From: a bacterium
GTDB lineage: Bacteria; SZUA-182; DTGQ01; JAFGSM01
NCBI GenBank assembly: GCA_049472335.1
Contig: JBLIRO010000001.1
Span: 87,015-151,014, forward strand
DNA: 64,000 nucleotides
Direction of reading: 5' to 3'
Every line of letters starts with the position of its first letter. The first letter of the stretch is position 1. Shown piece by piece: positions 53,393 through 64,000 of this stretch. The notes under the pieces are model-generated. The model saw only the letters and a list, made by a program, of their open reading frames with translations. It was not told the origin of the DNA and made no database searches. The position numbers were made by a program, and so were the translations under genes.

Positions 53393-55242
53393 TTATGGCA
53401 GGTTTGACTTAATATTGTCTAATTTAAATTCACCCATGATTATCTTAAGGTCTTCTGATAATTTATTTAGCTGAGAAGAGTGATAGGAAGACCGTTTTGT
53501 CAAAGAAACAAACTCTCTTGTGGTGTGATCGATTCCCATTGTGGCCTCTGCCAACTGATCTGAGGCATTCTTCTGCTGCTGAGTGGATGAAGAGATTTCC
53601 TGAATAAAATTGGCTGTTTTTTGTAACATTTCAAGCCCATCTGCAACAGTTTTGGTGGTATCCTCTATATCCAAAACGATAATATTGATATCATCCTGGA
53701 TCTCTTTTATAAGACGTCTGATCTCCTTGGTTGACTTAGAAGTAATTTCCGCCAGGGTTTTAACCTCCTGGGCCACGATCACAAAACCTTTTCCGGTCTC
53801 ACCTGCATGAGCGGATTCAAGGGCCGCATTAACGGCCAGAATATTCGTTTGGACAGTTATGTCGTCGATCATAACTGTGATATTCCCGATCGCATTTGAT
53901 TTATTCCCAAGGGAAAGAATTTTATTGGAAGTATCGCTCAAACTTAGTGTTGATGGTCTGCATCCCTTTTAGGGTATTTTCCGCCACCTCTTGAACATTC
54001 ATAGCATTTTTTAAATATTCATGGCTGTCGCTGCAAGCTCCTTTATAGATACACTCAACTCCGATATGGCAGCAGCCTGCTGACAGGCGCCAGATGATTG
54101 CTGCTGGGTTGACGCATCAATCTCTATAGATAATTCATCGATCTTAAATCCCGTGTCCCGAATCTGTATTATCATTGCCTTTAGGCTGTTGATCAAGGTA
54201 TTAAAGACCTTACCTAGCTGTCCAATTTCATCTTTTGTCTTTATCTCTACATATTGAGTCAGATAACAGGCCTTTTCAGCTATTCCGCTACTTGCCTCTG
54301 TTAAAATCCGAAGAGGATTGATTATACAACTAGCTAAAAATATACCCAGGGTAACCGCAAGCAAAATGGCCACAAAGATCATGAGCGAAATCATACTTTT
54401 TGCTTCTATCCGAGCTGCCAATGTCTGGTTTCTTGGAATACTCACCATCAACATACCTATGGGAATCCCCTTGATATTTTTAAAGAGGGAGACCTTGGAT
54501 GTAACAGGCACTCCTAAGAGATCCAAATTAAAGTTAGTCTTCTTTTTGGCTTTGGCCTCTCTATATATATCCATAATACCCGGGATATTTAAAATTTGCT
54601 CTCCCGGTTTAACTAATGTCGTAACACTCAATTGATCTTCGATCAAAATGCTGATATCCGCTCTTACCATAGCATAAATTTCATTAATATAATTTTGATC
54701 CAGGTCTTTGCTTATTATCATTATTCCCAACAAACCCCCTTCAGGCGATTTAATCGGCAAGGCTGTTTTAACTATTATCAAATCCCTGTCCTTCTCGAAG
54801 GCTAAAACTTCCTCCCCTTTTTGAACCTTTTTTATCAAAGGCCCGCTCAGCGCCTTATCTCCAATCCTGAATCGGGAATGAAATGATCCTTTTACGACAC
54901 CTTCCTTGTTGACCAAAATCAGACTGCTTATTCCCGCCAACTCAAGCTGAGACAAACGTTTCGCAGTATTTGAACAGACATGGTCGAAGTCAGGCTCTGC
55001 TGAATCATGGAGTCATTAGATAGAAATCTTCCGATTATGATTAAATTTTTATGGGATTCTTCGATCATGTTATCGACAATATTTGTGACAAAGAAGGTTT
55101 TGTTTTTGAGTGCCTGATCGATTTTTTTCCCTACAATCCTTATGGTCAAATATCTAACAAACAGCATTGGTATAAGGATAAAGAGGGTGAATATTACAAT
55201 CGGCTTATACCGGAGTTTCAACCCAAGAGAAACCATTATCAA
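53393..55242 (-). pseudogene. Methyl-accepting chemotaxis protein broken into at least three reading frames
   Basis: 54928-55242 holds the N-terminal TM and start of the sensor. 54011-54955 holds the sensor, TM2, HAMP and start of the signalling domain. 53393-53941 holds the conserved core VQTNILAVNAALESAHAGETGKGFVIVAQEV. A fourth frame reads NAMNVQEVAENTLKGMQTINTKF in the gap 53942-54010. Confidence 0.7.
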
Positions 55243-55400
55243 TTTTAAAATTACTTCCGTTTAGGTAGAAAATTATATTCAGGGATATTAATGAGGGGGT
55301 TTTTATCTCTTTATTTATCGGTAAAATTAAAACTTCGCTTCAGCAGTAATTTTAATTCCGGGTCTGAATCCTTTTGATGCTTACTATATGGTTGAATTGG

Positions 55401-56720
55401 TCAAAAGTGATACCTTGTCCTTAATTCAATCTTATAGTCATTTTGCTTTTCACCATACTCAGTGAAGTTTTTCCCATAAATAAATCCTGCTTTTATCCTC
55501 AATTCCAGGTTTGTTATGGGATTATAAAGAAGCTCCGGGGAAAACGAAAAACTTGAATCGTTTACATTATAAATAATAGTAACAGCAGGAGTAAAATAGA
55601 GGATATCGAAGGGCTCCTTGTGTGCTATTCGCAGATATAAATAGTCCTTCATAGGATTAATCCTGTCAAAATTCAGTTGAGACGTTTTTTTAATTAATGC
55701 GTCATCACCTGAGGAGATATATTGATTATAAGCATTATTTAAAAAGGAGTAAAAGTCACGCATGTCTTTTTTGGAAAATCCGGCACCCTTGTGATAATAC
55801 TCTAAGATATAAGTCGTTTCCGCTTCTGTTAGATACCTTACACCAATAAGATAACTCTTTGTGTTATAGACCTTTTCAAAACCTTTTCCATTTGGATCAC
55901 TAAATACATTAGGATCAATAAAAATATTCTTTACATCCCTTATATAGGCAAATTCGGCATGGACCTCAAAATTTGACTTTATATTTCTTGAAAAGTCAAT
56001 ACCGTAAGCATTTCCTTTACTGCCGCCGGCAAAAAAAAGAAAATCCAAATCCGTGTTATATAATAGCAGATATAACTTGCCTGCAAGATTCAGATGCCGG
56101 GTCTTACCGAAATCTTCATTAATATGCCTTTCAGAAGGGATTAAAACAGGAGTAAATGCCAAAGTGTTCAGGGGCCCGGAAGCAAAGCTTTTTATATAGT
56201 CCGCCCTTGCCATGATATAACCTTCCAGTCCGAGTTCCGGATCATCGGGATTCTTGGGCCTGTCCACGAAGGCTACAGGGTTCCATGCATACCCCTTTCC
56301 CCACTTGAGGGTACATTTACCAAGGTCAAGGGTAAAAGAAAGGGAAGGCTTTAACGAAACATAACCCTCAAAGATTTTGGTCTCGTCCGACCATCCTTGG
56401 TATGTCTTTCGGAGGTATGAATTTGCCTTAATATAAAGACCCGCTTTATCCCATTCATATGTCCCATCCACATGAAGCCTCAGGTTGTATTCCTCGATCG
56501 TATTTCCCTCGTTGTGGTTATAAAAACCGAACTTGTACAAAGAGGCATCCTTGTCGAGGCCAAAAACAACCGGGCGAAATTCGACATATCCCCCTAAATG
56601 GTACGGTTTCTTTTCTATCTCTGAAAGGTCAAAGACGTATTCTTCCTGAGCGGAGATTATTTTGGGAAACAGGATACAAAAAATAAGGGAAACAATAAGA
56701 AGCCTGGGGTGAAGTTTCAT
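55401..56720 (-). CDS. Probable outer-membrane beta-barrel protein of the ABC/LolA-like cluster
   Basis: Signal peptide …KIISAQE, an alternating-residue pattern, and a C-terminal …ELRTRYHF ending in Phe. Confidence 0.5.
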   Translation of the reverse strand: MKLHPRLLIVSLIFCILFPKIISAQEEYVFDLSEIEKKPYHLGGYVEFRPVVFGLDKDASLYKFGFYNHNEGNTIEEYNLRLHVDGTYEWDKAGLYIKANSYLRKTYQGWSDETKIFEGYVSLKPSLSFTLDLGKCTLKWGKGYAWNPVAFVDRPKNPDDPELGLEGYIMARADYIKSFASGPLNTLAFTPVLIPSERHINEDFGKTRHLNLAGKLYLLLYNTDLDFLFFAGGSKGNAYGIDFSRNIKSNFEVHAEFAYIRDVKNIFIDPNVFSDPNGKGFEKVYNTKSYLIGVRYLTEAETTYILEYYHKGAGFSKKDMRDFYSFLNNAYNQYISSGDDALIKKTSQLNFDRINPMKDYLYLRIAHKEPFDILYFTPAVTIIYNVNDSSFSFSPELLYNPITNLELRIKAGFIYGKNFTEYGEKQNDYKIELRTRYHF

Positions 56721-56725
56721 GCCTT

Positions 56726-57466
56726 TTATCTTAAGGATTCCAATTTAGGCATGAAGTTGAGCGTAAACACCTCGTCTTTGAATTCTCTCTTTTTCATCTT
56801 CGCAAATATCATTATGGATTTGTAGTCCTTATGCAAAGGGCTGTCCGTCTCAACTACAGAGGGCCTTTCGATCCCTCCCTCAAAGGATTTTATCTCCTTG
56901 AAATAGAGGGTCTTTATAAGCATGGAATCGTCCGTAAGGCACTCGATCTTTGTGGGAAGCAGCCGGTCGGTATCCACCCACATCCTGAGTTTATCATAGG
57001 CTACAGAGTCGCTCTTTGCCTTGAGATATAAAAGATATTCCTTCTCCTTTTCCTCCGTTTTTTAAAACACGTATTCCTCTGAATAGTCAAGGCGCAATAT
57101 ATCCGAATTATTGAAAACGCCCCCCACCACGGACTGAAGGCTGGTTATCCTTATTGGTTTTCCCACATCCGGGATATAGAGCCACATATTGTCCTCCAGC
57201 CTGAGGGTGCTCCTCCCTTTCTCGCTTGCGGGGGAGAGAAAAAGGGCGGCCACCTTTTCTTTCCCTTTCTTTATTGTATAAAGTACAAATTCCTTTTTCC
57301 TGCCGTCCGGCTCGATATTTATAAGCTTTTTATAGGACTCGTAAGACTCGGGATTGAGGTTTCTGTCAACCTTGATGAGTATTTCATTTCCATCCTGTGC
57401 ATAACTTGCTGAAGCAACAATAATAAGGCCTGCACAACATAACAATACTATGATTTTTTTAAACAT
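56726..57466 (-). pseudogene. LolA-like outer-membrane lipoprotein-sorting protein interrupted by one in-frame TAA
   Basis: ORFs 57062-57466 and 56726-56983 are in the same frame (57466-56983 = 483 = 3x161). Read-through gives …DYSEEYVF-TAA-KTEEKEKEYLLYLKAKSDSVAYDKLRMWVDTDRLLP…. Confidence 0.65.
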
Positions 57467-57593
57467 TTTTCTTTCTTACCCCTAAATTTTTTGGATTTCA
57501 GATCATAAAAAAATTCGAAAACCGTAACATTTTAGTTTTTTAAATCGTGTGCTTCTTTCTAATTTCTTTTAAACAACAAAACTCATATAATTA

Positions 57594-58832
57594 TTATAAA
57601 TGCTTTAGGGCTTTTATAGGTTCCATCCTTGATGCCTTAAAGGCGGGCTGAAGGCTTGCTATTACGGATACAAAGATGACAATTACAGAAACCAGAAGGA
57701 TGTCCTGAATCTTTATAACAGGTGAAAGTATAAGTCCGGTCTGCCTTCCGAAATTAAAGGTGATCTTGGAGATATTTATTATATAGATAATCATGAGGGC
57801 AAAGATGTTGCCGACTATTGCTCCAATGATACCGAGCGAAAATCCCTCAATAAGAAAAAGGGAAAGGATATTTTCGGGCATGGTTCCTATGGCGGCAATT
57901 GTGCCGATCTCCCTTATGCGCTCAAATACCGCCATGATCATCACGTTCATAATGCTTATAAGTACTATGGCAATAAGCATGAGCTTTATAAAAAAGGTCA
58001 TGATATCTATCATCTTTGCCACATTAAAGAAAGGAGAAAGTTTTTCCCATGTGTGCACCTCGAAAACGGCCTTGTCTTCTTTATTAAGCTCGGAAGAAAG
58101 CATAGCGTCAAGCCTTCCGGACACCTCATGCAGCGCTTGAAAATTTTTCAGTCTCAGCGCTATTTCGCTTATCTCCCTGTTCTCCATTCTGAGGATATCC
58201 ATGGCATCCTGTATATGAATATAACCGTCCCTGCCACCGGGACCGGTTACACTTTCTATAATCCCTCCGACCTTTAATTGCCTGCCGTTAACAGAGCCCT
58301 CTCTGTTAGTGGCAATAACCACCACTGTATCCCCTACCCTCACCTTCATACCCTTTGCCAGCAGCTCCGGTATAATGATCTCCCCCTGTGTAATTTCCTT
58401 TTTGCCATCAATTATCCTGGATGCCAGAAGAGGTACTGTGGCAGCTTCCTGGTCCGGTATTATACCGTTTATCCTTACGTTAGTGGTTTCAGTGAAATTG
58501 CTGAACAGCCCTCCGAACTTCAGCCTCAAAGAATATGCCTCTATCTCAGGGATCTGTTTTATGTAATTTTCAACCTTTTTAACCGTTTTGGATTCAAGGT
58601 TCAAGGTCAGAGGAAGATTATCTATGGAAGCCACATACCCCCTTTTATGCACCTGTATATGTCCCAGCATTGAGTCGGTTATCTGACCTACCATCATGCC
58701 CTTGAAAGAATCGGAAACCGATATGAACACCAGAACAAATACCACGCCGATGGTAATCAAAAGGGTGGTTAAAAACGTCCTCCTTTTATACCTGAAAAGG
58801 TTTCTTATGGCGATCTTAAAAAGATTATACAT
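57594..58832 (-). CDS. ABC transporter permease, FtsX/LolC-E/MacB-like
   Basis: 412 aa with an N-terminal TM, a large periplasmic domain, then three C-terminal TMs. It overlaps the ATPase gene by 8 nt. Confidence 0.75.
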   Translation of the reverse strand: MYNLFKIAIRNLFRYKRRTFLTTLLITIGVVFVLVFISVSDSFKGMMVGQITDSMLGHIQVHKRGYVASIDNLPLTLNLESKTVKKVENYIKQIPEIEAYSLRLKFGGLFSNFTETTNVRINGIIPDQEAATVPLLASRIIDGKKEITQGEIIIPELLAKGMKVRVGDTVVVIATNREGSVNGRQLKVGGIIESVTGPGGRDGYIHIQDAMDILRMENREISEIALRLKNFQALHEVSGRLDAMLSSELNKEDKAVFEVHTWEKLSPFFNVAKMIDIMTFFIKLMLIAIVLISIMNVMIMAVFERIREIGTIAAIGTMPENILSLFLIEGFSLGIIGAIVGNIFALMIIYIINISKITFNFGRQTGLILSPVIKIQDILLVSVIVIFVSVIASLQPAFKASRMEPIKALKHL

Positions 58833-59511
58833 GTTTCTTTTCCATTATTTCCCCATCCAGGAGTGTATAAATAATCTCTACCTCCTCTACCACCTTGTTA
58901 TCATGGGTGGAAAAAATAAAGGTGGTGCCAAACTTATCCTTCATTTCCCTCATTATGTTTATAACCTTGTAGGCAGTCTCATGGTCCAGATTTGCCGTGG
59001 GCTCATCAGCCAACACAAGCCCGGGATTGGTTACAAGGGCCCTTGCCACGGCCACCCTTTGTTTTTGCCCGCCCGAGATCTGGTCGGGATATTTGTCCTT
59101 TTGCTCTTTCATGCCAACGGATTCAAGAAGCTCCATAACACTTTTTTTACGATTCACGGCAGAAACCTTTTTCACCATTAGAAGGGGGTATTCAACATTT
59201 TCATAGACCGTGAGAACAGGTATAAGATTAAAGTCCTGGAATATAAAACCGATATTCTTCCCCCTGAATGAGGCGGCTTTTCGCTTGTTAAGCGAGGTAA
59301 CATCCTCCCCCGCTACGCTCAACATACCGGAGGTAGGTTTATCGAGGCATCCTATAAGATTTAAAAGGGTTGTCTTACCACTTCCTGACGGACCGATAAA
59401 AGAGACAAAGGTGGCAGGCTCGATCTTAAAGCTTAATCCTTTTAAGGCATTGAGCGCGACCTCTCCGTTTATATATGTCTTTCTCAGGTCATTTGATACA
59501 ACCAGGCTCAT
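58825..59511 (-). CDS. ABC transporter ATP-binding protein (LolD/MacB-ATPase-like)
   Basis: GPSGSGKTTLLN, LSGGQKQRVAVARAL, LADEPTANLD and an H-loop STHD. Confidence 0.85.
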   Translation of the reverse strand: MSLVVSNDLRKTYINGEVALNALKGLSFKIEPATFVSFIGPSGSGKTTLLNLIGCLDKPTSGMLSVAGEDVTSLNKRKAASFRGKNIGFIFQDFNLIPVLTVYENVEYPLLMVKKVSAVNRKKSVMELLESVGMKEQKDKYPDQISGGQKQRVAVARALVTNPGLVLADEPTANLDHETAYKVINIMREMKDKFGTTFIFSTHDNKVVEEVEIIYTLLDGEIMEKKHV

Positions 59512-60217
59512 ATTTCTCTTTCTCTAAATGTCCTAAAATCATTCGGAAGTTATAAAAAATCCCTTATAATTATAAGGTTATGTTTTTTAAGTATTATTTC
59601 CTGATGATTATTTTATCAGTATAGTAAAGATACTGAAAAAATTCAAACTGGAGAGAAATTTCAGGGAATTTCCGACATCTTTTAGATATTAAAATCTATT
59701 ACGACTTGATAAAGATAAAACAACCTAATATAATTAAAATTATAAGTCTGTTAATTATCAATATACATTCTGGTATACAGGATCTCATCTAAAATCTCTT
59801 TGTTGTTGAATCACTTTTAAAGACAAAATTAAATATATTTATAAACCAAGTTTAAAGTTATTTATTATAATAGCTTAATTATGTTTATAAAAATAACAAA
59901 CAAAGAGTATCAAAAGCTTATTTTGCACATTAGAGCCCCGCCTTATGGAATTTCTTGAGGTTTTTGCCTTTTTCAATCATTTAATCAAATGAAATATATA
60001 GATAAGAAGGCAATACCTGATAAATGATTGATAAATTCAAAAGGGCCTAATATTAATATGGCAAAAAAGGATTTATAGAAGTAATTTTTTTGCATTCTTT
60101 GTATATTACTAACAACTTTGATAAAAACATTATTATTGCCTTGAATGCCAATTAGATATCGAGTTGAGGAGTAATTGAATTGGATCCATGGCTGTCAAGG
60201 TCCATGGAGGTAATACA

Positions 60218-60994
60218 ATGAAAAAGATTATTTTGATCCTTTGTGTTGTAATGATTGCAGTGGGTATCTGTCTTACCGGAGCAGAAGCATACTTCGGCGG
60301 CCTCTTTGCCCCGAATGGACTCCTCAGTAGCGCCTATTATGGCGGTCTTGGTTTTTATGGCGGGCTTTATGGCGGGCTCTATGGCGGCCTTGGCCTTTAT
60401 GGCGGAGGTCTTTATGGTGGGCTCTACGGCGGCCTTGGCCTTTATGGTGGAGGTCTTTACGGCCTTTATGGCGGCCTTGGGCTTTTAGGAGGGCTTTATG
60501 GCGGAGGATTGTACGGCCTTTATGGCGGCGGCCTTGGCCTTTTCGGTGGGCTATACGGCCTTTATGGCGGGCTGTCTCAGATTTCTCCTTTATTAACTAT
60601 AGCTCTTCTGTATAACCAGCTTTTCCCTAGTCTGCTAAATCCAGTTCCATCACCGGTCACATCCACACCGATATCCGTTCCCACACCGATTATTACTGTG
60701 CCGACACCAAATATTACAGTGCCGACCCCGCTTCTTACGGTTCCAACTCCAATAATTACGGTCCCAGCCCCGATAATTAATGTGCCAACTCCTATCATCA
60801 CAGTACCGACCCCCATCGTTACAGTACCTACCCCAATCGTTACAGTACCTACCCCAATCATAACAGTGCCAACACCGATTATTACAGTACCGGCACCGAT
60901 TATTACGGTCCCCACTCCGATCGTTCCCATTCCGCCCCCGGTGACTCCGGTTATAACTCCCATAATCCCAATGATGCCGCTGATTATAACTTAA
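60218..60994 (+). CDS. Secreted repeat protein: Gly-Leu-Tyr-rich half followed by about a dozen TVPTPII heptads
   Basis: GGAGG lies 7 nt before ATG 60218. Signal MKKIILILCVVMIAVGICLTGAEA. Then GGLYGGLYGGLGLYGGGLYG… followed by VPTPIITVPTPNITVPTPLLTVPTPII…. Confidence 0.7.
   Translation: MKKIILILCVVMIAVGICLTGAEAYFGGLFAPNGLLSSAYYGGLGFYGGLYGGLYGGLGLYGGGLYGGLYGGLGLYGGGLYGLYGGLGLLGGLYGGGLYGLYGGGLGLFGGLYGLYGGLSQISPLLTIALLYNQLFPSLLNPVPSPVTSTPISVPTPIITVPTPNITVPTPLLTVPTPIITVPAPIINVPTPIITVPTPIVTVPTPIVTVPTPIITVPTPIITVPAPIITVPTPIVPIPPPVTPVITPIIPMMPLIIT
60676..60933 (+). repeat. Coding 21-bp tandem repeat (heptad TVPTPII) with many synonymous differences between units
   Basis: Units such as acagtgccgaccccgcttctt, acggttccaactccaataatt and acagtacctaccccaatcgtt encode nearly the same heptad with different codons. 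Confidence 0.8.
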
Positions 60995-61082
60995 GGGAGG
61001 GCAATTTGCCTGTATTTTGAATCTGTCAAGCATAAGAGATTTTTGCTTTTATCAAAAGATGAAGCAGATATGTAGTATAATA

Positions 61083-61121
61083 AAGTGGAGCGCAAAAGCG
61101 CTCCACTTTATTATTTGTTTT
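61083..61121 (+). terminator. Rho-independent terminator of the repeat-protein gene
   Basis: AAGTGGAGCGC-AAAA-GCGCTCCACTT forms a perfect 11-bp stem, followed by a T-rich tract. Confidence 0.8.
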
Positions 61122-61157
61122 GATTTTCTCTCTAGGCAGGATTTGATCTTTAATTGT

Positions 61158-61199
61158 TGCTTTTGACACTTTATAACCCTTATGTTATGTTAAATTTAA
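61158..61199 (+). repeat. 41-bp repeat copy 1: sigma70-like promoter and/or Xer(dif)-like site
   Basis: The sequence is GCTTTTGACACTTTATAACCCTTATGTTATGTTAAATTTAA. It reads as TTGACA(61163-68)-17 nt-TATGTT(61186-91). TTATGTTAAAT (61185-95) equals the XerD arm of E. coli dif. Confidence 0.5.
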
Positions 61200-61417
61200 T
61201 CAAAAATATTTACATTTAAAATTTTAATGAGACGGCAAAGAAGCTTCATAGAAGATGTAGGGCACGAAAATGATTTTAGCTTAGGGGATATTGTAATATT
61301 TCTATGCAAAAAGCATTTTAAACAACGCCGAATGTAGGGTAGAGTCCAAGTCTTAATAGACTTCAAATGCAAGATTTGGATTTAACTCTTCACTTCGATC
61401 ATATAGGGATAATAAAG

Positions 61418-61717
61418 ATGAATAAAGATGAAGTAATTCGTTTGATGCGGGAACATTCCGGCTTTTTGATGACCGAATATGGAATTTCTAGAATCGGAAT
61501 TTTCGGATCCGTGGCAGAAGGTAATATGACAGAAGATAGTGATTTGGATATAGTTGTTGAATTCAAGAAGCCAATAGGATTTAAGTTCAATAAACTTGTC
61601 GAGTATCTTGAAAATTTGTTCGGAAGAAAGGTTGATGTGCTGACAATAGACGGTATTAAAAATATAAGAGTAAAAGAGGTTGCGAAAAATATCGAAAGGA
61701 CTTTAGTCTATGTCTAA
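61418..61717 (+). CDS. mntA: Nucleotidyltransferase antitoxin (MntA-like)
   Basis: IGIFGSVAEGNMTEDSDLDIVVEF (GS…DxD). The internal ATG at 61418 gives about 99 aa. It overlaps the next gene by 8 nt. Confidence 0.75.
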   Translation: MNKDEVIRLMREHSGFLMTEYGISRIGIFGSVAEGNMTEDSDLDIVVEFKKPIGFKFNKLVEYLENLFGRKVDVLTIDGIKNIRVKEVAKNIERTLVYV

Positions 61718-62039
61718 ACGTGAAGATTCTGCTGTTATTCAAGATATAAAAGAAGCTATCGATAGAATTATATCATATACAGCAAAAATGGATTATGAGG
61801 ATTTCCTGCGTGATTATAAAACACAAGATGCAGTGGTTAGAAATATTGAAATTTTGGGAGAAGCAGCAAAATTACTATCCGAGGAAACAAAAAGAAGCTA
61901 TCCCAATATACCATGGAAAGACATAACAGGCACAAGAGATAAACTGATTCATGACTATTTTGGCGTAAATATTGATATTGTATGGGATATTGCCAAGAAT
62001 GAGATTCCTTTCCTATCTTCACAGTTAAATGATAAATAA
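61710..62039 (+). CDS. hepT: DUF86/HepT-type HEPN toxin
   Basis: …TGTRDKLIHDYFGVNIDIVWD… carries the R-x4-H HEPN motif. 109 aa. Confidence 0.75.
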   Translation: MSKREDSAVIQDIKEAIDRIISYTAKMDYEDFLRDYKTQDAVVRNIEILGEAAKLLSEETKRSYPNIPWKDITGTRDKLIHDYFGVNIDIVWDIAKNEIPFLSSQLNDK

Positions 62040-62224
62040 ACGGCTGACAATCGGGATTATGTTGTGACGTAACCCCTAATAACAAGTGAAATTAAACATT
62101 ACAAGCAATAAATCCTCTGGCGATTTTCCCTTTCTAATAAAACTGACCATACTTTTCTCGCATGAATTGAATAATAATTAAGATGCATCAAGTCCTGGAT
62201 ATCATTCATCAATTTGTGGCCTTT

Positions 62225-62266
62225 AGCTTTTGACACTTTATATACCTTATGATATGTTAAATTTAA
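62225..62266 (+). repeat. 41-bp repeat copy 2 (38/41 identical to copy 1)
   Basis: The sequence is GCTTTTGACACTTTATATACCTTATGATATGTTAAATTTAA. It reads as TTGACA 62230-35, 17 nt, TATGTT 62253-58. No ORF follows for about 460 nt. Confidence 0.5.
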
Positions 62267-62393
62267 CTTTTACTTTGATTATATAGAGATTTTAGGAATT
62301 TTCGAGAATCAGCCTTTTAATTTTTGAAGATTCCTTTTTACATGGAAATTTTAGAAATTAATTAGAAATTTTAGTTCACATTTACGGTCCTTA

Positions 62394-62529
62394 TTATCAG
62401 GTAAAATATACCTGATAATAGGGGAATTTTAAACTTATCAGGTAAAATTGACCTGATAAAAAATTATCAGGAACTTTTTACCTGATAACAGGCTAAAAAG
62501 GGGATTATCAGGTAAAAACGGCTTGATAA
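62394..62529. promoter_or_regulatory. Four 25-bp palindromes TTATCAGG-N9-CCTGATAA (operator/iteron-like)
   Basis: Sites lie at 62394-62418, 62435-62459, 62464-62488 and 62505-62529 (the last has CTTGATAA). An everted copy, CCTGATAAC…GTTATCAGG, lies at 62633-62665. Confidence 0.7.
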
Positions 62530-62533
62530 TACA

Positions 62534-62696
62534 TTACGCCGCTCCGCGGCGTAACGGGGAGCTAACGCTAACACGTTCAGCATTGGGCCGCGCCGCTGCG
62601 CGTCGCAACCCAACGCTGAACGCGACGTACTCCCCTGATAACCAGTGCAAGGCACCGTTATCAGGGTGCGCCGCGCGTTAGCTCCCTGTTATGTGC
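62534..62696 (+). other. GC-rich multi-stem element (attC-like recombination site or structured RNA)
   Basis: Hairpin TTACGCCGC-tcc-GCGGCGTAA (62534-54). Outer stem GGGAGCTAACGC (62557-68) / GCGTTAGCTCCC (62675-86), extendable to TAAC/GTTA. Inner stem 62574-87 / 62609-22 (13 of 14 pairs). Inner stem CCCTGATAAC (62632-41) / GTTATCAGGG (62657-66). Confidence 0.55.
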
Positions 62697-62724
62697 AGAA
62701 TAGGTATGGGAAATTATCAAGTTT

Positions 62725-63621
62725 ATGGCTGAAGTAAACGAACCCAAAAAACATCACTATGTACCTCAATTTTACTTAAAGAAGTTTTGCTGCATAGATG
62801 ACGAAAATAAAGTTCCAACGATAAGTCGTCATAATCCGTTCCTGATCCAAAAGAGAAGTTCAATTGGCAGAATAGGTTATGAAGATAATCTCTATAAAAT
62901 TACTGATGACGAAATTGAATTATGTATAGAAAGGAATCTAAATAGATATATTGAAACACCAATTTCACAGTCTAAGACGTGGGAAAAGATAGATGAAGGT
63001 ATCCCTGAACTATTGTCTGAAGACGATAAATTAGTAATTTATATATTTATTAGGCATTTGGAGTCTCGGAATATAGAAACCCTAGAGTCCTTGAAAAGTG
63101 AACAAGTCCGAATAAAAGATCCTAAATATAGAAATGAATATTCAATAGAAGAGCATATAATGCATAATCAAATTAGCTCCATTCCGGACGGAGTTGATCA
63201 GTTTTATCTGGGAATGTCAGAAAATATTGATCAGTATTTTGAACAGTATGAGAGAGCATCAGTGTCAATATTTGGGTCTAGTATTCCAATACGAACTTCA
63301 ACTAATCCAGTAGTCAATGTTCCAATGCACACATTTCAAAATAGAGAGTTTAACCCAAATGAATTGGCAAAATGGCTACCACTGAGCCCAAAAATTGGCG
63401 CAATGTTATTTCTAAATGACAATTATTGTAACTTCGGAAAATACCAGGTTGTTGAAAATGAGGTCATTAGAACTCTAAATAGACTTTATCTTATTCAGTT
63501 GCTTAACTCACGGACAACTAGGCATATGGTTGCAAGCGATGAGTACATTTTAGATGATTTTGAATGGGCAGGAGTAAAAGTAGATCCTAGAAACCCAAGA
63601 AAGTTTAGGTGTCCTAGTTAG
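62725..63621 (+). CDS. DUF4238-domain protein
   Basis: The N-terminal KKHHYVPQFYLKKF motif is the hallmark I associate with DUF4238. 298 aa. Confidence 0.65.
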   Translation: MAEVNEPKKHHYVPQFYLKKFCCIDDENKVPTISRHNPFLIQKRSSIGRIGYEDNLYKITDDEIELCIERNLNRYIETPISQSKTWEKIDEGIPELLSEDDKLVIYIFIRHLESRNIETLESLKSEQVRIKDPKYRNEYSIEEHIMHNQISSIPDGVDQFYLGMSENIDQYFEQYERASVSIFGSSIPIRTSTNPVVNVPMHTFQNREFNPNELAKWLPLSPKIGAMLFLNDNYCNFGKYQVVENEVIRTLNRLYLIQLLNSRTTRHMVASDEYILDDFEWAGVKVDPRNPRKFRCPS

Positions 63622-63653
63622 GATGTTGGGTAAGGATAAGTATTATAAAAAAA

Positions 63654-63763
63654 GCACATAACAATAGGTTCGAGAGGGAATTGCCCCCGCAGCACTTGTT
63701 TTGTGCTTTAAACAGCACAAAACAATTTTTACTGCGGCAAGCCCCTCAGCCAAAGTGTTATGT
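63654..63763 (+). other. 110-bp imperfect hairpin, attC-like
   Basis: The ends ACATAACA (63656-63) / TGTTATGT (63756-63) pair. Middle arms GGTTCGAGAGGGAATTGCCCCCGCAG vs CTGCGGCAAGCCCCTCAGCC pair with bulges. The apical stem TTGTTTTGTGCT / AGCACAAAACAA is a perfect 12 bp with a 6-nt loop. Confidence 0.55.
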
Positions 63764-63775
63764 TTCTTTATAGAT

Positions 63776-64000
63776 ATGAAATCAGATAAGAAGATAATAA
63801 GAGCTATTTTAATTTTCTTTTTAGGCGTAGCTGTTGGTATCATAGGTATAGCTGTTGTTATCTTATTTTATCAAAAGTCATTTGAGCTGTTTTCAACCAT
63901 AGCTCCAGCAATCACTACATTGTTAGCTGCATTTTTAGGTGCTTGGTTTGCTTATCTTCTGGCAGACAACAAGGAAAAAAGAAAAGAAATAGCTTTGAGA
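63776..64000 (+). CDS. 5' part of a small membrane protein gene running off the window
   Basis: The ATG at 63776 opens MKSDKKIIRAILIFFLGVAVGIIGIAVVILFYQ…TTLLAAFLGAWFAYLLADNKEKRKE with no stop before 64000. It is absent from the ORF track because it is unterminated. Confidence 0.5.
   Translation, partial: MKSDKKIIRAILIFFLGVAVGIIGIAVVILFYQKSFELFSTIAPAITTLLAAFLGAWFAYLLADNKEKRKEIALR

Follow-up and report, generated by a model that had tools for sequence, protein, structure and literature searches.

The four palindromes at positions 62394-62529 of the window (the whole 64-kb stretch of DNA that was analysed, corresponding to coordinates 87015-151014 of contig C1 in a fragmented 4.98-Mb assembly, G000, with 41% GC) are most likely the part of an integron attI site that the integrase recognises, and the locus as a whole reads, at the level of its sequence, as a decayed integron platform. 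The platform would be organized in the order of a leftwards-transcribed intI stub, a Pc-like promoter overlapping the intI start codon, an AT-rich spacer, the four palindromes, the crossover point, and an array of cassettes.

A pattern scan for TTATCAGG-N9-CCTGATAA returns four matches in the 64-kb window and no others, and none of 100 shuffled sequences contains four matches (the shuffle mean is 0.06 matches). Palindrome 1 (62394-62418, + strand), which is the distal copy and has a presumed accessory role, and palindrome 2 (62435-62459, + strand) are composed of TTATCAGG-TAAAATATA-CCTGATAA and TTATCAGG-TAAAATTGA-CCTGATAA, respectively. Palindrome 4 (62505-62529, + strand) is the proximal copy and has a single C>T change in its right arm (CTTGATAA); it corresponds to the type of site that adjoins GGTT in all copies of the module described below. 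The spacers are not free to vary, and those of palindromes 1, 2 and 4 open with TAAAA, whereas palindrome 3 (62464-62488) has the + strand spacer AACTTTTTA; palindrome 3 is thus the same asymmetric site turned round and lying on the - strand, with the orientation of the loop being read from the sequence. The first-pass annotation had reported four 8-N9-8 sites with one mismatch in the last, and this is borne out by the scan, in which there are exactly four matches and only palindrome 4 deviates. The distances of 41, 29 and 41 that it gave are also the spacings measured start-to-start (in nt), and the two neighboring features it listed are both present: AT-rich short repeats at 62345-62375 and a pair of everted half-sites within a GC-rich element (CCTGATAA at 62634-62641 and TTATCAGG at 62658-62665). 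The 17-bp centre-to-centre distance between the half-sites of each palindrome is unusual for recognition by a simple dimer.

Upstream of the palindromes is the remnant of an integrase gene (62129-62236, - strand), containing about 36 N-terminal codons (VSKAKGHKLMNDIQDLMHLNYYSIHARKVW...) and oriented divergently from the cassettes. A tblastn search using the IntI N-termini of loci L049 and L015 as queries matches C1:149250-149143 (E 0.003), and the translation VSKAKGHKLMNDIQDLMHLNYYSIHARKVW aligns with the integron integrase N-terminus (MSSTQNGKIMDDVHDVMRLHHYSIHTERSY). The stub is separated from palindrome 1 by 157 nt; in the relatives, the distance from a full-length intI to the proximal palindrome is 64-237 nt. 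A Pc-like promoter (62230-62258, + strand; TTGACA-17-TATGTT with TG before the -10, a consensus score of 10/12, and a predicted function) faces the cassettes with a -35 hexamer overlapping the intI start codon, and all copies of the module retain it. In known integrons Pc occupies the same place, overlapping the intI start region. A possible PintI-like promoter (62278-62305, - strand; TCGAAA-16-TATAAT) faces the intI stub and is a consensus match only, scoring 10/12. The AT-rich spacer between the Pc-like promoter and the palindromes (62259-62393, + strand) includes the short repeats at 62345-62375 and is conserved among the module copies. The description of this region as a gene-free leader is correct in that there is no intact gene, but it overlooks the intI stub on the - strand (62129-62236) and a cassette that consists of little more than an attC-like site (62534-62694).

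We note several other features of this region. The AT-rich spacer of the module contains a further 8-7-8 palindrome, TTAACTTA-N7-TAAGTTAA, which is intact at C28:7430-7460 and C63:32720-32750 and degenerate in the window at approximately 62355-62380; located between the PintI-like and Pc-like matches, it could be a separate regulatory site. A second segment with an intI start and a Pc match is located at 61159-61199 (+ strand), where four intI codons and TTGACA-17-TATGTT lie upstream of an MntA/HepT toxin-antitoxin pair (61367-62039), such that a 41-bp segment (61159-61199 and 62226-62266) is present on both sides of the pair. Further upstream, a stretch at approximately 59701-61170 of the window (C1:146715-148184), which includes a gene for a secreted protein rich in G, L and Y and with TVPTPII repeats, is absent from the congeneric genome G005 (locus L012), in which the sequences flanking it abut at the orthologous place.

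The predicted crossover point lies directly to the right of palindrome 4 (62530-62536, + strand), and alignment of the module copies shows that it is decayed. The window has TACA|TTA where the paralogues have TCATATGG|TTA, and at the junction AATACA|TTACGCC is found in place of AATCATATGG|TTACGCC, with A replacing the G of G|TT; the spacing between palindrome and crossover is 3 nt in the window compared to 6-7 nt in the intact copies. The G|TT crossover (GTTRRRY) expected of an attI site is missing from the window copy, and is present in the copies at C125, C63 and C28, in locus L018 of G005, and in 37 intI-linked loci. Because G|TT is lost here and retained in the paralogues and relatives, the window copy is a decayed member of an attI family. 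Given this loss and the altered arm of palindrome 4, it is probably no longer a good substrate for recombination and is probably a fossil docking site. Integrase may still bind here, and the promoter may still serve to express the cassettes.

To the right of the crossover, the attC-like sites, a DUF4238 gene and the small genes that follow it identify a cassette array, in which the attC-like sites were called with a crude stem-energy filter and not with a covariance model. The first cassette (62534-62694, + strand) is a gene-less mini-cassette that is almost wholly an attC-like site of 146 nt (62549-62694, GCGTAAC...GTTATGT), starting 20 nt past palindrome 4; its outer stem pairs 62552-62568 with 62675-62691, and the arm duplex is calculated at -37 kcal/mol. 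The inner hairpin displays the palindrome half-site as CCTGATAAC...GTTATCAGG, and the stem of this hairpin is formed by CCCCTGATAAC...GTTATCAGGG (62634-62665); once folded, the single strand would thus contain a single copy of the putative IntI half-site in duplex form. A copy of the mini-cassette with 95% identity is the first cassette after GGTT at C63. The second cassette carries the DUF4238 gene (62725-63621, + strand; PF14022, 68.9 bits) with an attC-like site at 63656-63763, and further small genes follow, with a third attC-like site lying outside of the window at C1:152196-152294. The palindromes are thereby positioned between the intI stub and the first attC-like site, which is the position expected of attI.

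The palindromes belong to a module that is present at four places in the genome. C1 and C125 carry four sites each, those of C125 being at a contig end, and C28 and C63 carry one each; with zero or one mismatch there are 11 sites in total, ten of them within the four modules and one a stray with a single mismatch at C35; a reversed-pattern control in the same genome has no matches. Other matches with 1-3 mismatches (at C18, C74, C35 and elsewhere) lie within coding regions and were set aside as chance occurrences. BLAST and alignment show that the module is about 260-340 nt long, is 76-88% identical between copies, and contains the TTGACA-17-TATGTT match, the AT-rich spacer, and one or more palindromes that constitute its 3' end. 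All four modules have a divergent intI N-terminal stub, truncated at different points: the C125 stub extends to about residue 65 (E 3e-8), that at C28 extends to only about residue 20, and a stub is also present at C63. Similarity between the modules, and with locus L018 of G005, stops directly after GGTT, the junctions being ...CCTGATAATCATATGGTT|GGAC at C125, ...GGTT|ACGCC at C63, ...TCAGTGGTT|AGCA at C28 and ...GGTT|CGGC at L018.

None of the four modules is adjoined by an intact intI gene. The sole good IntI fragment in the assembly is at the end of contig C43 and includes the C-terminal 151 residues (221 bits on half of the TIGR02249 model), with the IntI-specific insert present; an N-terminal half matching it was not found in the assembly. 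The earlier observation that no binding-protein gene lies next to the sites holds, and is accounted for by decay of the adjacent integrase to about 36 recognisable codons. Two other integrase remnants are present in this genome. A second kind of decayed integron head at C99:2200-2646 has an intI N-terminal stub (SNSDSKLMDQVREVLRYHHYAYHTEQ) interrupted by a stop, and on its cassette-ward side there are four direct repeats of AATAAGTGGAAA ahead of ATCAATGGTT, with the core TATATCAATGGTT; the TTATCAGG palindrome was not found at this stub. The other, at C62:22374-22901, is the degraded gene of a tyrosine recombinase whose ends resemble those of integron integrases; it is interrupted by in-frame stops and has lost model positions of approximately 111-242 through an internal deletion, and no palindromes or attC-like sites were seen near it.

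A broader relationship is seen among other bacteria. A pattern scan of reference genomes showed that the palindrome is also present in Desulfobacteraceae MAGs, in two of which it precedes a divergent intI by approximately 65-90 nt; the IntI proteins used as queries are integron integrases (433-448 bits with TIGR02249, compared to a cut-off of 265). Using Desulfobacteraceae IntI as query, 80 intI loci were fetched and searched for a signature comprising the palindrome (with no more than 3 mismatches), N4-8 and GTT, on the cassette-ward strand and within 400 nt of intI. The signature is found in 9 of 12 loci whose IntI is at least 70% identical to the query, in 23 of 33 at 65-69%, in 4 of 9 at 60-64%, and in just 1 of 17 below 60%. 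Overall, 36 of the 54 loci at or above 60% identity have the signature, against 1/17 below it; such co-variation with the class of integrase is a property expected of attI. About one third of the intI loci at or above 60% identity fall outside of the pattern, some of them with degenerate versions. The hosts include Desulfobacterota, Nitrospirota, Verrucomicrobiota, Chloroflexota, Gammaproteobacteria and Nitrospinota, among others. Within the family itself, co-occurrence could be compared among only six genomes and is thus a weak test: G003 has three distant intI genes and no sites, and G005, for which the assembly is only 63% complete, has seven sites and lacks intI.

The consensus derived from 31 of these loci is ATCAAx-TTATCAGG-GCAAATTGA-CCTGATAA-TCAATG-GTTAG. 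In the intact relatives the order towards the cassettes begins with distal palindromes, where present, in a 41-42-nt register, and continues with TTATCAGG-N9-CCTGATAA, TCAATG, and G|TTRRRY. Of 29 loci, 10 have a second site, often degenerate, which is set back from the crossover by a further 41-42 nt, and in three others the distance is a multiple of 41 nt. Four palindromes adjoin intI in the intact integrons L049 (Desulfamplus) and L093, so that the four-site form is a trait of the lineage and not a product of decay. The more distant clade of IntI proteins (<60% identity) shares this layout and uses instead the half-site ATTATACGG, which is seen at loci L081-L100 (Chloroflexota and Verrucomicrobiota) as CCGTATAAT-N4-5-GTTRRRY with GGATTATAC copies upstream; this arrangement could represent a second attI signature. 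The change of half-site in this clade, together with the AATAAGTGGAAA repeats at C99, indicates that the accessory element changes with the integrase.

We infer that IntI is the protein that reads the palindromes, since intI is the only protein gene common to site-bearing platforms in unrelated phyla. A plausible arrangement, drawn by analogy with attI1, is that a simple site would have its L box in the right arm of the proximal palindrome and its R box in GTTRRRY; the spacing of CCTGATAA, 6 nt and GTTRRRY parallels in its sequence layout the two boxes of attI1. Accessory sites for IntI, serving to keep integrase close to the crossover, would then be provided by the left arm and the distal palindromes. 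Within this genome, integrase would need to act in trans, with the candidate source being the gene whose C-terminal half ends contig C43.

Other roles can be proposed for the palindromes, including several that were suggested at first pass. Of the proposal that constant geometry reflects cooperative binding by a protein, the part that stands is recognition of duplex DNA, which is the best reading and a predicted one; the operator, iteron or origin, and centromere roles offered along with it do not stand, because the sites are in the attI position. We regard it as unlikely that some regulator other than IntI, from the host or linked to the integron, uses the palindromes as operators to control the divergent PintI and Pc promoters. 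LexA does control PintI regions in class 1 and Vibrio integrons, the sites are placed between the Pc-like and PintI-like matches, and a repeated register of palindromes is typical for operators. However, the same site occurs in at least six phyla that have only intI in common and among which host regulators and their motifs differ, and the half-site changes with the IntI clade. The proximal site is at a fixed 6 nt from G|TT, which suggests a logic of recombination rather than of promoters, and the window sites start 136 nt downstream of the -10 and overlap neither promoter match. Outside of the four modules this genome has just the one stray site with a single mismatch (C35), and there is thus no regulon. 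The boxes of LexA and IHF were also considered directly, and both were rejected because of sequence misfit by eye and the lack of other genomic sites.

Somewhat less probable still is that the palindromes act as hairpins, either as four stem-loops that influence the stability or translation of the Pc transcript from within its 5' leader, or as extruded single-stranded or cruciform DNA that is read in the manner of attC. It is as folded hairpins that attC sites are read by integron integrases, the mini-cassette holds the same half-site as a hairpin stem, and folding of the single strand gives the expected hairpins with a z-score of -8.2; however, any perfect palindrome folds well, and this score is therefore not evidence of function. 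The pairing is not maintained in the relatives: all 8 of 8 pairs are kept in only 9 of 31 intI-linked proximal sites, and among these 31 sites 41 changes break a pair on one side only and 3 are compensatory. With 16 changes in the left arm and 31 in the right, conservation is about twice as high on the left, and the crossover is outside of the palindrome. The lack of conserved arm pairing favors recognition of duplex DNA by a protein, and the RNA-hairpin alternative raised at first pass is weakened. It is very improbable that the palindromes are iterons of an origin, a parS-like centromere of a plasmid or chromosome, or a dispersed repeat of the REP or MITE type, for which the appearance of even, tandem repeats without an intact gene is the only support. 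No rep, par or transposase gene adjoins any of the copies, no Rep or ParB genes were found beside the four copies, whose flanks are chromosomal housekeeping genes, and all four chromosomal copies share the context of intI stub and cassettes. The association with intI across phyla is strong, and the genome-wide count by which a REP-like repeat was to be recognised has the opposite outcome, with 10 of 11 sites in four similarly placed modules and none with the reversed control.

Three other types of element were considered and rejected. An Rfam scan of 55000-64000 with E values up to 1 gave only chance miRNA and sRNA matches far below gathering scores; a CRISPR-like array does not accord with 25-bp repeats separated by gaps of 4-16 bp; and the sole terminator-like matches correspond to an accidental stem between palindromes 2 and 3.

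If the palindromes are the recognition part of attI, as we favor, then many such sites are without an integrase. A search of the reference genomes with an exact 24-base signature, TTATCAGG-N9-CCTGATAAT-N-AATGGTT, gives 108 matches, mostly in Desulfobacterota. Among the 73 sites that could be classified, a full intI accompanies 12 and a stub 16, and the remaining 45 lack intI within 0.3-1.5 kb. Of 81 sites scored for palindromes, 58 have one, 21 have two and two have three, and the density of attC-like sites around these 81 (with the crude stem-energy filter) is 0.18 per kb downstream and 0.03 upstream, compared to a genome background of 0.016. The MAG of Desulfamplus sp. nJC1bin9 has at least 12 exact signatures on at least nine contigs (among them loci L010, L013, L113, L134, L163, L172, L174, L175, L179 and L188), several of which come directly after housekeeping genes with no trace of intI and are followed by open reading frames and attC-like sites.

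A further comparison is with the congeneric genome G005. Locus L018 of G005 is the positional orthologue of the C28 module, with 91% identity over 5 kb of flanking sequence, and both have an intI stub; L018 has four palindromes and C28 just one, and all of the sequence past GGTT differs, the first cassette included. Likewise, the mini-cassette is 95% identical between C1 and C63, whereas the attI modules at these two places are only 78% identical. One scenario, which we offer tentatively and consider somewhat doubtful, is of a distributed integron, in which attI platforms that have partly or wholly lost intI stay live as docking and expression sites served by one or a few integrases in trans, with the number of palindromes (1-4) tuning the recruitment of integrase. 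Its support includes the small share of signature sites with a full intI, the enrichment of attC-like sites on their cassette-ward side, and the 12 or more signatures in the one Desulfamplus genome. The difference between L018 and C28 and the shared mini-cassette both fit with continued use of orphan attI sites in trans, but homologous recombination between modules could explain both without an integrase.

The 24-base signature would mark the attI sites of a large integrase clade that crosses phyla. To our knowledge, attI is the only core part of an integron that is not predictable outside of classes 1-3. The signature would enable the true start of an array to be located, CALINs to be recognised as decapitated integrons, and the use of orphan sites in trans to be asked about directly, and the natural series of one-, two- and four-site forms lends itself to determining the effect of accessory integrase-binding sites on recombination. 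We found no description of this motif in the literature searched, although absence there is not proof of novelty.

The closest known counterpart is attI1 of class 1 integrons, which is described as having a simple site with L and R boxes plus direct repeats DR1 and DR2, giving four IntI1-binding sites (PMC3146285, summarising Partridge 2000 and Gravel 1998); IntI1 binds the direct repeats, whose proposed role is to retain it close to the simple site (PMC3146285). A PCR survey found environmental attI sites to be diverse and mostly without accessory repeats (PMC3146285). The element described here resembles attI1 in lying between a divergent intI and the first cassette, in having its crossover at the G|TT of a GTTRRRY box (in the relatives, that of the window being decayed), and in being specific to an integrase clade. 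The core sequence of attI1 is GCCCTAA-AACAAA-GTTAGGC, and both it and the consensus here (CCTGATAA-TCAATG-GTTAGG) have an inverted box about 6 nt upstream of the crossover. Extra copies of the recognition sequence are present upstream in both, with their role here being assigned by analogy. However, where attI1 has two direct 7-bp repeats, the accessory elements here are 25-bp palindromes of inverted half-sites, in a 41-42-nt register and in one to four copies; there is also no sequence similarity past TTA, and in the window intI is only a stub and the GTT is lost.

The palindromes are also similar in form to the core sites of tyrosine recombinases such as loxP (13-8-13), dif (11-6-11) and FRT, in which inverted recognition elements for two recombinase monomers surround a short spacer. 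They differ in that the spacer is 9 bp and in that exchange, as judged from the breakpoints of homology, occurs 6 nt outside of the palindrome rather than within the spacer. They are like the LexA boxes of PintI regions in being palindromes in the intergenic region between intI and attI, but are conserved across phyla with differing LexA motifs, lie at a constant distance from the crossover, and do not precede other genes in this genome; we know of no LexA motif to which the sequence is related.

The array itself is comparable to a CALIN, a cluster of attC sites lacking an integron integrase, for which loss of the integrase has been proposed as one scenario of origin (Cury et al. 2016, PMC4889954). 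It has at least three attC-like sites by the stem-energy filter and no intact intI nearby, as expected of a CALIN, but differs in that the array here retains its head, in the form of the intI stub, the Pc-like promoter and a recognisable attI. The element is thus an attI site, and in that sense of a known kind, heading what IntegronFinder would call a CALIN. What is new, as far as we have found, is the palindromic, multi-copy accessory architecture, a signature that can be searched for across phyla, and the large excess of copies without an integrase.
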